Assembly (NCBI GenBank): GCA_951406725.2
Contig: OX597839.1
Location: 28,396,001-28,460,000 of the forward strand
Direction of reading: 5' to 3'
DNA: 64,000 bases
Source of the DNA: Octopus vulgaris
Taxonomy: Eukaryota
Of this stretch, positions 21,101 through 50,640 are shown in pieces. Every line of letters starts with the position of its first letter. Position 1 is the first letter of the stretch. Both the position numbers and the translations under genes were made by a program. The notes under the pieces were generated by a model. The model made no database searches and had not been told where the DNA came from. It saw nothing but the letters and a program-made list of their open reading frames with translations.

Positions 21101-24100
21101 TAAATTTGTAACTTGTTTTACTTGGATAAGAGTTATATTATAAACACTCAGCAACTATATGAAACTGTCCGTTTGACAAAAACCCGAGTGAGAAACAGAC
21201 ACACATGGAAAAGAGACTGGCTTCCAAGGATACAACAGGTTGAAGCCATGTTCACGTGCTAAAAGAATAAATGGCCATTTTATCTCCAACAAGTTGGCTT
21301 TATTGTAGGGTGGTATGTAAGACAGGGCATTGAGTGAGCTTTATGGTAGAGGGTATATATAAGACAGAAATGTAGGGGATGGTATGGATAGAGAGGGTAT
21401 ATAAGGTGGTGAGCTGGCAGAAACGTTAGCATGTTGGGCGAAATGCTTAGCGGTATTTTGTCTGCCGCTACGTTCTGAGTTCAAATTCCGCCGAGGTCGA
21501 CTTTGCCTTTCATCCTTTCAGGGTCAATTAAATAAGTACCAGTTACGCACTGGGGTCGATATAATCGACTTAATCCATTTGTCTGTCCTTGTTTGTCCCC
21601 TCTGTGTGTAGCCCCTCGTGGGCAGTAAAGAAATAGGTATATAAGACATGGTATTGAGTGAGCTTTATGATAGAGGGTATATATAAGACAGAAATGTAGA
21701 GGTGGTATGGATAGAGAGGGTATATAAGGCTGGGTGCAGGGGTGTATGGATGGAAGTGATATAACAGGAGTGCAGGGTGGACCCAGATGGTGGGTGTGTG
21801 TCTGATAGAGATATGAGGATGAACTGGAGGACAGAGGCTGTCATAGTTTAGCTCCCCCAACTCTTATGTGCAGAAACTCTAGTTGTTTCTACTGTTACTG
21901 TATGTGTTGTTGTTGCTATAGTTCTGATTAATTCTTGTCTCTCCCCTCTCACCAGTACCCACATGCAAGACCTGAAGGACGTTACTGCTGATGTTCACTA
22001 TGAAAACTACAGAGCCACATACTTAGCTGACCAAATGAAGACCGGCAAGGAACGCAAGTGAGTCACTCTTCACACACCATCACCATAATCACCATCATAA
22101 TCAACACCACAACTCTTATTTTTATTATTATTTTTATTATTATTATTTTTATTATTATTTTTATTATTATTATTATTATTATCATTTAGTAGAGCGTCGG
22201 TACTGTCAGGCATTTTTGCCTGACAGTATTTACTCTGGCTCTTTACACTCTGAGTTCAAATCCCACTAAGATCACATTTGCCTCTTATCCTTCCCCTAAA
22301 GTGGTCTAGTGCCAATGTTAGACCCTAAATTCATTATTAACATTATTACCATCATCATTATCATTATTGTCCTCATTATTAATTACCATCATTATTATTA
22401 TTATAATTACCATTATTACTATCATTATTATAATTATTGTAATTACTAGCATTATATAATTATTATTATTATTATTATTATTAAGTACCAGTGAAACACT
22501 AGGGTTGATGTAATCGACTGGGGTACAAATATACGAAGCCCAGTATACCCATCATGATTACCCGGTCTGATAAGGGTACACCAGGCACATGCATCACAAC
22601 CATATGTGCACGACATGGTGACCTCATGTCGAAATAAACAGTGCCTGACCTTACAGGTGGGGCCCAGTTAGAAAATTTACTTCAGGTCAAGTAGCCCATC
22701 TCGCTCAAAAGGTCCCTGAATAAGGGTTGTTTAAGGATATTAAACGAAACACCCATGTTTCCAAAGGTGAATTATACAAACCCCAAAGAATTCCTCTCAA
22801 CACATGGCTACGATGCTCCCCCATTATTATTATTATTATTATTATTATCATTACCACTGGCACTTGGTTATTCCTGTTTCCCAAAATCTGTGTCCTTATC
22901 AAAATATTATTATTAATGTGTATATTTTTATTGTTCTCCTCATTGTTACCAAAATCATATGAAAATCTGTTATTGACACTATTTTCCATGTTATTTCAAA
23001 TAATAATAATATTCTTATTATCATCATCATCATCATCATTATCATTACTACAGACGTTGTTGTTTTTGTTTATTTGTGTTTTTTTTTTGCTGTTGTTGTT
23101 TTTGTTGTTGTCTCAACGTCAACTTTGTATTTTCGCTCTTCTCTGAACATTATAAACGTGTACCAGTAATACGATGGGAGCTGTTTGAACCAGCTCTCTT
23201 CCTACTCCCTCTCCTTACTTCCTCTCCCCCTCCTGCCACGCTCTGTGTTTGTGGTTGTGTAACGTTGCTGTCGGAAGCTGTTATTCCTCCTCTCATTAGA
23301 GCTGTTGTTGTTGTTGTTGTTGTTGTTGTCGTAGTTGTTGTCGTTCAGCCACACCACTACTACCTCTGCTGTTGTTGCCAGTACATCAGGTCTGGTCTAA
23401 CAAGCCTATGGTTAAAAGCATTCCCACCAAGGCCACCCAGTCTTAATATTTTTTTTTTCTTTTTGATTGATTGTTTTTTTATATGTTTGTGAGACACAAA
23501 TCTCTCAAAGTCTTTGTCATCCAACGTGTACGACCAGTTGTGATGGTAAGTGGCCCAGTGGTTAGAGCCAGGCTTATGACCATCAGATCACCATCCATTC
23601 TGGTATGTATCATCATCATCATCATCATCATTTAATGTCCATGCTGGCATGATGGTTTGCTGTGCTTGAAAAGACACATCAAGCTAAGTAAAAGCATGAT
23701 TGCCCTTGCATACAGGCTTGTCCCCTTGCAACCCTCTCCAGTTCAGAGCACCCCTAATCTTGTGGGCTTGAGGTCCTGGTGCTACGTGAAAAAAAATCAC
23801 CTGTGTTGGTGCTGCGTAACAGCACCTAGTACACTCTGTAAAGTGGCATTAGGAAGGGCATCCAGACAGGGAGCCTGAATAGCCCTTCAGCTGGTCAGCT
23901 CCTGTTAAATCGTCCAACCTCTGACAGCATGTACAATGGACATTAAATGATGATGATGATGACGATGATGATGATGTGTAGTGGGGTCAATATAATCAGC
24001 TATGGTGAGTACCAGGCTTTAAAACAAAATGAGTACAGGGGGTCGATTCATTTGACGAAAACCCTCCAAGACAATGCCCCACTATGGCTGCAGTCCAATG

Positions 24101-50640: not shown

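Follow-up and report, generated by a model that had tools for sequence, protein, structure and literature searches.

The window analysed here, a 64,000-nt stretch of Octopus vulgaris DNA (contig OX597839.1), carries a septin gene on its forward strand, recovered by six-frame reading and by tblastn of Octopus septin records (Table 1). Neither the first coding exons nor the last coding exon was found in the window by tblastn of these records. Within the exons, the translation shows no difference from records of O. vulgaris and O. sinensis that bear the names "septin-2-like" or "septin-5", and the same protein is represented by the RefSeq models septin-5 X1-X4 of O. bimaculoides (XP_014786258-61) and X1-X5 of O. 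sinensis, as well as by O. vulgaris CAI9741384-87. With G-domain exons that match those of the window, four orthologous records score 410 bits against PF00735, the septin G domain (cut-off 26.2), and each of their five closest PDB entries is a Septin-2 or Septin-1. Because of this score and these matches, and with a short C-terminal coiled coil predicted by AlphaFold2 (helix 394-431), the gene is classed by similarity, rather than by a tree, as a septin of the SEPT2 group.

Table 1. Septin exons, splice candidates and a motif cluster in the window (positions count from its first letter)
Feature	Position	Length (nt)	Strand	Remarks
G-domain exons	6081-6167, 10114-10237, 11159-11293, 13423-13540, 15624-15725, 19009-19105, 19638-19689		+	Constitutive; tblastn, splice dinucleotides, PF00735 on records
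Exon closing the G domain (helix alpha6)	21956-22057		+	Constitutive; contig matches stop exactly at 22057
Candidate terminal unit	24398-24452		+	Strong acceptor; reads through predicted donor into TGA; AATAAA at 24836
Candidate	28116-28118	3	+	Edge of TA/TG microsatellite; probably chance; passed over by three spliced contigs
Cassette exon	31092-31133	42	+	Frame-preserving; adds 14 residues (15 residues replacing N)
Candidate	35325-35342	18	+	Flanked on either side by an AT microsatellite; probably chance; no stored protein has the peptide
Candidate	44111-44143	33	+	Donor 2 of 7; probably chance; peptide in no stored protein
Candidate	44218-44235	18	+	Donor 3 of 7; probably chance; peptide in no stored protein
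GCATG cluster	44579-44772		+	9 GCATG (6 of them TGCATG), Rbfox-type, around acceptor 44722 and 3-nt candidate 44722-44724
Exon with hinge end and coiled-coil start	50562-50640		+	Next intron exceeds 13.3 kb and runs out of the window

Several alternative N-termini, with short or long first exons, appear in records P0002-P0037 and are located upstream of the window; these first exons differ between octopods and decapod-type records. Literature searches returned no study of this gene, its isoforms or any cephalopod septin exon, and the main text of preprint 10.64898/2026.09.05.749416 does not contain the word "septin". A metagenome scan with P0034 yielded five distant animal loci and no cephalopod transcript, and a search of short proteins (18 matches among 22 candidates) gave no further cephalopod splice form and one genomic read-through, P0140.

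The intron at 22058-50561 does lie between two septin exons and measures 28,504 nt, as the sequence-only reading had it. The accompanying range of 0.5-4 kb for the other introns fits the seven internal ones (0.5-3.9 kb) but not the flanking pair, which exceed 6.0 and 13.3 kb because the window contains neither the exon preceding 6081 nor the final coding exon. Tandem and dispersed repeats make up about 46% of the 28.5-kb intron, compared with 63% and 51% of neighbouring intronic DNA. We rejected the idea that the size of this intron is special in itself, given the neighbour of more than 13 kb, the similar repeat content and the long genes of O. bimaculoides, of which the top ~14% are indicated to exceed 30 kb (PMC7222433).

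At 19811-20225, 24915-25322, 27005-27634, 44906-46402 and 48844-49692 lie minisatellites, with units of 18, 40 and 310 nt, and degenerate AT microsatellites of great length; these microsatellites could conceal assembly collapses. Inside the 3.9-kb intron, the ORF text at 8171-8413 (+) and 9209-8967 (-) is nearly identical on opposite strands and marks an inverted duplication spanning at least about 250 nt. Two mutually similar degenerate ORF pieces on the forward strand (31357-31767 and 52513-52761), the first beginning about 220 nt past the 42-nt exon, resemble the end of a non-LTR retrotransposon protein. Pfam gave no family for three repeat-like ORF pieces, and Rfam gave no match over 22000-51000.

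The phase-2 donor at 22057 is the hub for every alternative 3' partner. We checked contigs of four of the 24 listed runs, presumed to be RNA, on positions 21790-22110 (321 bases), and found the junction 22057-31092 in three of them (X1, X9 and X18, with three organism labels and from three studies). Each of these contigs joins the end of the previous exon to exon 21956-22057, spliced at both ends, and to the first 30 letters of 31092-31133. The contig of run X2 continues into the intron and comes from unspliced RNA or DNA. The skip junction 22057-50562 was not seen in contigs of the four runs. The downstream junction of the 42-nt exon is taken from 14 protein records. Nineteen of the 27 proteins in four cephalopod clusters span both flanks, and the insert is present in 14 and skipped in five, counts that include redundant records (isoforms and related species). 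O. bimaculoides, O. sinensis and O. vulgaris each have annotated models of the two forms, the one Argonauta record skips the exon, and all nine unnamed proteins with both flanks that cluster with Sepia pharaonis SEPT4 include it. Donor 22057 splices directly to 50562, giving a short hinge, or via the 42-nt exon, giving a long one. The inclusion junction in contigs and the protein records of both kinds bear out the proposal that this candidate is a true frame-preserving cassette adding Ser and Arg. It is also already known, in that it stands in automated annotation: the RefSeq and other public models of the gene include or skip it, and some carry one of two alternative terminal tails, the CKLC tail in three species and the 24398 exon in one model, both of which remove the coiled coil.

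The suggested check of conservation came out in favour of the exon, which is kept in the Sepia-containing cluster. Eleven of the 15 residues of the insert are invariant between Octopus and decapod-type records, the differences from Octopus being F/Y, T/V and V/M together with one in-frame deletion of a single residue. The insert occurs in none of the 96 proteins with both flanks among 102 non-cephalopod proteins (a redundant set of other molluscs, an annelid, a brachiopod, a nemertean, chelicerates and unnamed proteins). Because it is present in Octopus and Sepia-type proteins and in none of these 96, the exon looks coleoid-specific, with an origin dated only loosely by a protein set that holds no Nautilus record.

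The strict microexon class comprises exons of 3-27 nt. Like the neural microexons of the Srrm3/4 (eMIC) programme, the 42-nt exon is short, preserves the frame and falls in a disordered or surface region; unlike them it is longer than the strict class and has no TGC just before its 3' splice site. The one exon with evidence of inclusion is thus outside this length range, and the candidates of 27 nt or less occur in no stored protein. Upstream of the 31092 acceptor, ACTAAC and ACTAAA at 31043-31070 are branch-point-like and also resemble the Quaking motif.

PDB matches, Pfam and an AlphaFold2 model agree with the earlier placement of the intron at the hinge between the GTPase domain and the coiled coil. 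In the model, built for the inclusion form from an alignment of 53 rows and with a mean pLDDT of 73, helix alpha6 ends at residue 366 and the coil 367-393 holds the insert, which is itself predicted as coil with pLDDT below 50. Inclusion would lengthen the modelled hinge from alpha6 to the coiled coil from about 13 to 27 residues, a gain in contour length of about 5-6 nm at 0.4 nm per residue. The insert adds one Lys and three Arg, four positive charges, and no acidic residue. Its conserved motifs are R-S-P, R-P-S, S-x-R and R-S-S, and its Thr is not conserved. S-P and S-x-R are consensus phosphorylation sites of kinases. Animal septins are described as having an unstructured hinge of 15-24 residues at the same position, which lets the coiled coil pivot, and as binding anionic lipids electrostatically (PMC8099429); coiled-coil pairing has been proposed to set filament spacing (PMC9802686). 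The Octopus hinge shares its position and predicted lack of structure with that reported for SEPT2 and DSep1 (15-24 residues; PMC8099429), and unlike it is switched in length, about 13 or 27 residues, by splicing, the added part being basic and rich in Ser and Pro.

The 42-nt exon may therefore be read as a regulated switch of the hinge. A longer hinge would let the SEPT2-type coiled coil reach further, and the basic insert would bind anionic lipid and so provide an extra membrane patch. Greater reach and lipid binding would together change filament pairing and membrane attachment, and phosphorylation of Ser at the conserved S-P and S-x-R sites would reverse the charge effect of the insert. 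We place this regulated switch, with its reach, lipid binding and phospho-control, within our best explanation of the locus, tentatively and with a chance that we judge to be somewhat short of even.

The same donor also leads to a different C-terminus, which the sequence-only reading overlooked. Five records from three Octopus species (P0016, P0019, P0022, P0023 and P0027) share an identical seven-residue tail ending in CKLC; this isoform leaves donor 22057, and its tail replaces the hinge and the coiled coil. A six-frame peptide search, a two-piece search, a BLOSUM scan and a fuzzy DNA match did not find its exon in the window, and it probably lies beyond position 64000. The isoform was not seen in contigs of the four runs, nor the tail in the Sepia-containing cluster. 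The tail has Cys at -4, the aliphatic Leu at a2 and basic residues upstream; under the rules of PMC10320760 its a2 and X are permissive, as in most CXXX sequences. In a yeast screen of all 8,000 CXXX sequences, most of which are substrates, CKLC has a heat-map score of 3.20 against a cut-off of 3 and an enrichment factor of its own of 0.31, where the canonical CVIA and CVLS are also low at 0.41 and 0.49 (PMC10320760). Because the score is barely above the cut-off and most CXXX sequences are reactive, prenylation of CKLC is possible, being allowed by the sequence rather than indicated by it. A C-terminal CxxX occurs in none of 126 non-cephalopod proteins, and Cys at -4 occurs in four of 150 representatives, with unrelated tails. 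No septin paper on prenylation was returned by literature searches.

SEPT8 belongs to the SEPT6 group. In mouse, exon 10b of Sept8 is described as a NOVA-promoted alternative last exon, palmitoylated at C469/C470, whose tail drives dendritic arborization (PMC6092797). Both this exon and the Octopus CKLC tail would be cases of alternative 3' splicing that gives an isoform-specific, Cys-containing basic tail. They differ in that mouse 10b is a last exon bearing palmitate, whereas in Octopus the switch falls before the coiled coil of a SEPT2-group septin and the putative lipid site is CaaX-like.

A reading of donor 22057 as mainly a tail-swap switch, exchanging the coiled coil for a short basic CKLC tail that would serve as a prenylated membrane anchor, draws on the identical tail in five records of three Octopus species, its Cys, a2 and upstream basic residues, a screen score above the cut-off (PMC10320760) and the precedent reported for the lipidated last exon of mouse Sept8 (PMC6092797). 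Against this stand the failure to find the exon in the window as a contiguous, split or fuzzy match, the absence of CKLC from the contigs of four runs and from the Sepia-containing cluster, a score barely above the cut-off with a low enrichment factor among mostly reactive CXXX sequences (PMC10320760), and the lack of any CxxX end in the 126 non-cephalopod proteins. We regard the tail swap as possible and on balance doubtful. The broader proposal, in which donor 22057 is an ancient selector among a short hinge, a long basic phosphorylatable hinge and a farnesylated CKLC end without the coiled coil, is rather doubtful as well; if true, the CKLC septin, held by its prenyl anchor, could cap filaments at membranes or tether them there.

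A set of unnamed proteins, P0156-P0161, which we take to be vertebrate SEPT4, diverge from each other right after KERNR with a K/N switch, like the Octopus isoforms after KER. As judged from the protein sequences, this pattern suggests an ancient phase-2 intron at which alternative splicing or read-through has arisen repeatedly.

The main rival to a functional hinge switch holds that the 42-nt exon is real and functionally near-neutral, tolerated in a disordered hinge, effectively constitutive in decapods and leakily skipped in octopods. Inclusion in all nine decapod-type proteins and all three spliced contigs speaks for it, and hinge length and sequence do vary widely among distant septins. 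The 11 invariant residues of 15 between Octopus and decapod-type records, the frame kept through the deletion and the skip forms annotated in three Octopus species and in Argonauta argue against it; we consider near-neutrality unlikely, and the hinge switch remains our preferred reading of the exon.

The intron had originally drawn attention as an array of seven frame-preserving units, and all seven do exist on the forward strand: each is an AG...GT unit with a length divisible by 3, stop-free in the phase-2 frame, and encodes the peptide attributed to it. We compared them with chance using a home-made and crude splice score (pyrimidines of 15 for the acceptor, matches of 7 for the donor) on the intron's minus strand, 34.2 kb of other forward-strand intronic DNA and 40 block shuffles. 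At >=10/>=3 the intron's forward strand holds 25 units, compared with 24 on the minus strand, 27 in other intronic DNA and 20.8 +/- 5.3 in shuffles. At >=12/>=4 the respective figures are 5, 2, 3 and 1.4 +/- 1.0, the five units exceeding the shuffle maximum of 4 and two of them being 24398 and 31092. At >=12/>=5 they are 2, 1, 1 and 0.1, and both forward-strand units are again 24398 and 31092. The ranking of the 51- and 42-nt units as the strongest was well founded, since only these two stand out above chance at the strictest level. So was the caution that the others have weak donors and may be chance: they score 12/4, 11/4, 12/2, 12/3 and 10/3, mostly within the chance range, and at their score level counts equal those of the minus-strand and shuffle controls. 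These five are probably chance AG...GT matches, and none is present in the automated public models. By chance alone, octopus introns yield roughly one frame-preserving AG...GT unit per kb.

The 51-nt unit at 24398 matches a single record, the end of O. sinensis RefSeq isoform X3 (P0020), where it is a terminal exon. P0020 terminates at the stop codon that follows when the predicted donor of 24398-24448 is read through. It differs from the window here by a 3-residue indel and one substitution, whereas the constitutive exons and the 42-nt exon show no differences. The unit was not seen in the spliced contigs of three runs, which is not proof of absence. The evidence does not extend to a cassette included through two junctions with the frame kept, as had been proposed, and points to a terminal exon; by sequence, 24398 is probably a minor, weakly constrained alternative one.

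The GCATG cluster at 44579-44772, within less than 200 nt, is the densest in the window on either strand; its nine copies compare with a shuffle mean of 1.45, and none of 2000 shuffles reached nine, for a segment picked after inspection. PMC10551640 gives (U)GCAUG as the motif of Rbfox and reports UGC motifs ahead of microexons; several TGC lie upstream of the 44722 acceptor. The cluster surrounds a clean acceptor and could be either the remnant of an old micro-duplication or a splicing element that has been conserved. As an exon, 44722-44724 would add one Ser, and if read through, the protein would stop two residues on; the extra Ser is in no stored protein. A single-Ser microexon under Rbfox control is improbable.

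The existence of in-frame units, the strong splice sites of 24398 and its transcription in one O. sinensis model, the slight excess at >=12/>=4 and the Rbfox-type cluster lend something to a combinatorial array of cassette exons and microexons that tunes hinge length, probably in neurons, but just two linker forms (skip and one exon) occur among the 19 cephalopod proteins with both flanks, all three spliced contigs run from 22057 directly to 31092 past 24398 and 28116, candidate peptides are in no stored protein save for the 24398 match in P0020 (35325, 44111, 44218 and 44722 have none), and the weaker units are as frequent in the minus-strand and shuffle controls, so that such an array is very improbable. 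Contigs and gene models lose rare forms, and the missing candidates represent an absence of support rather than disproof; the contigs showed 30 letters past 22057, and for the units from 35325 to 44724, which follow the 42-nt exon, inclusion was checked via protein records. Overall, the seven units comprise one genuine alternative exon, one doubtful terminal exon and five probable chance matches. We think it likely that this is an ordinary long, repeat-rich octopus intron with one genuine coleoid-conserved alternative cassette exon and no array. In the inclusion form the 28.5 kb splits into two introns of 9,034 and 19,428 nt.

Septins have been described as binding membranes through basic patches, an amphipathic helix and, for SEPT8, palmitate. 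If the CKLC isoform is expressed and prenylated, a prenyl anchor that is selected by splicing and takes the place of the coiled coil would add to the means by which septin filaments are attached or brought to an end, and the tail is a lead worth following. As it stands, the 42-nt exon, an alternative exon of a septin hinge restricted to one lineage, is of modest interest. The two hinge isoforms form a natural pair in which the effects of hinge length and charge on coiled-coil reach, filament pairing and membrane binding could be compared.
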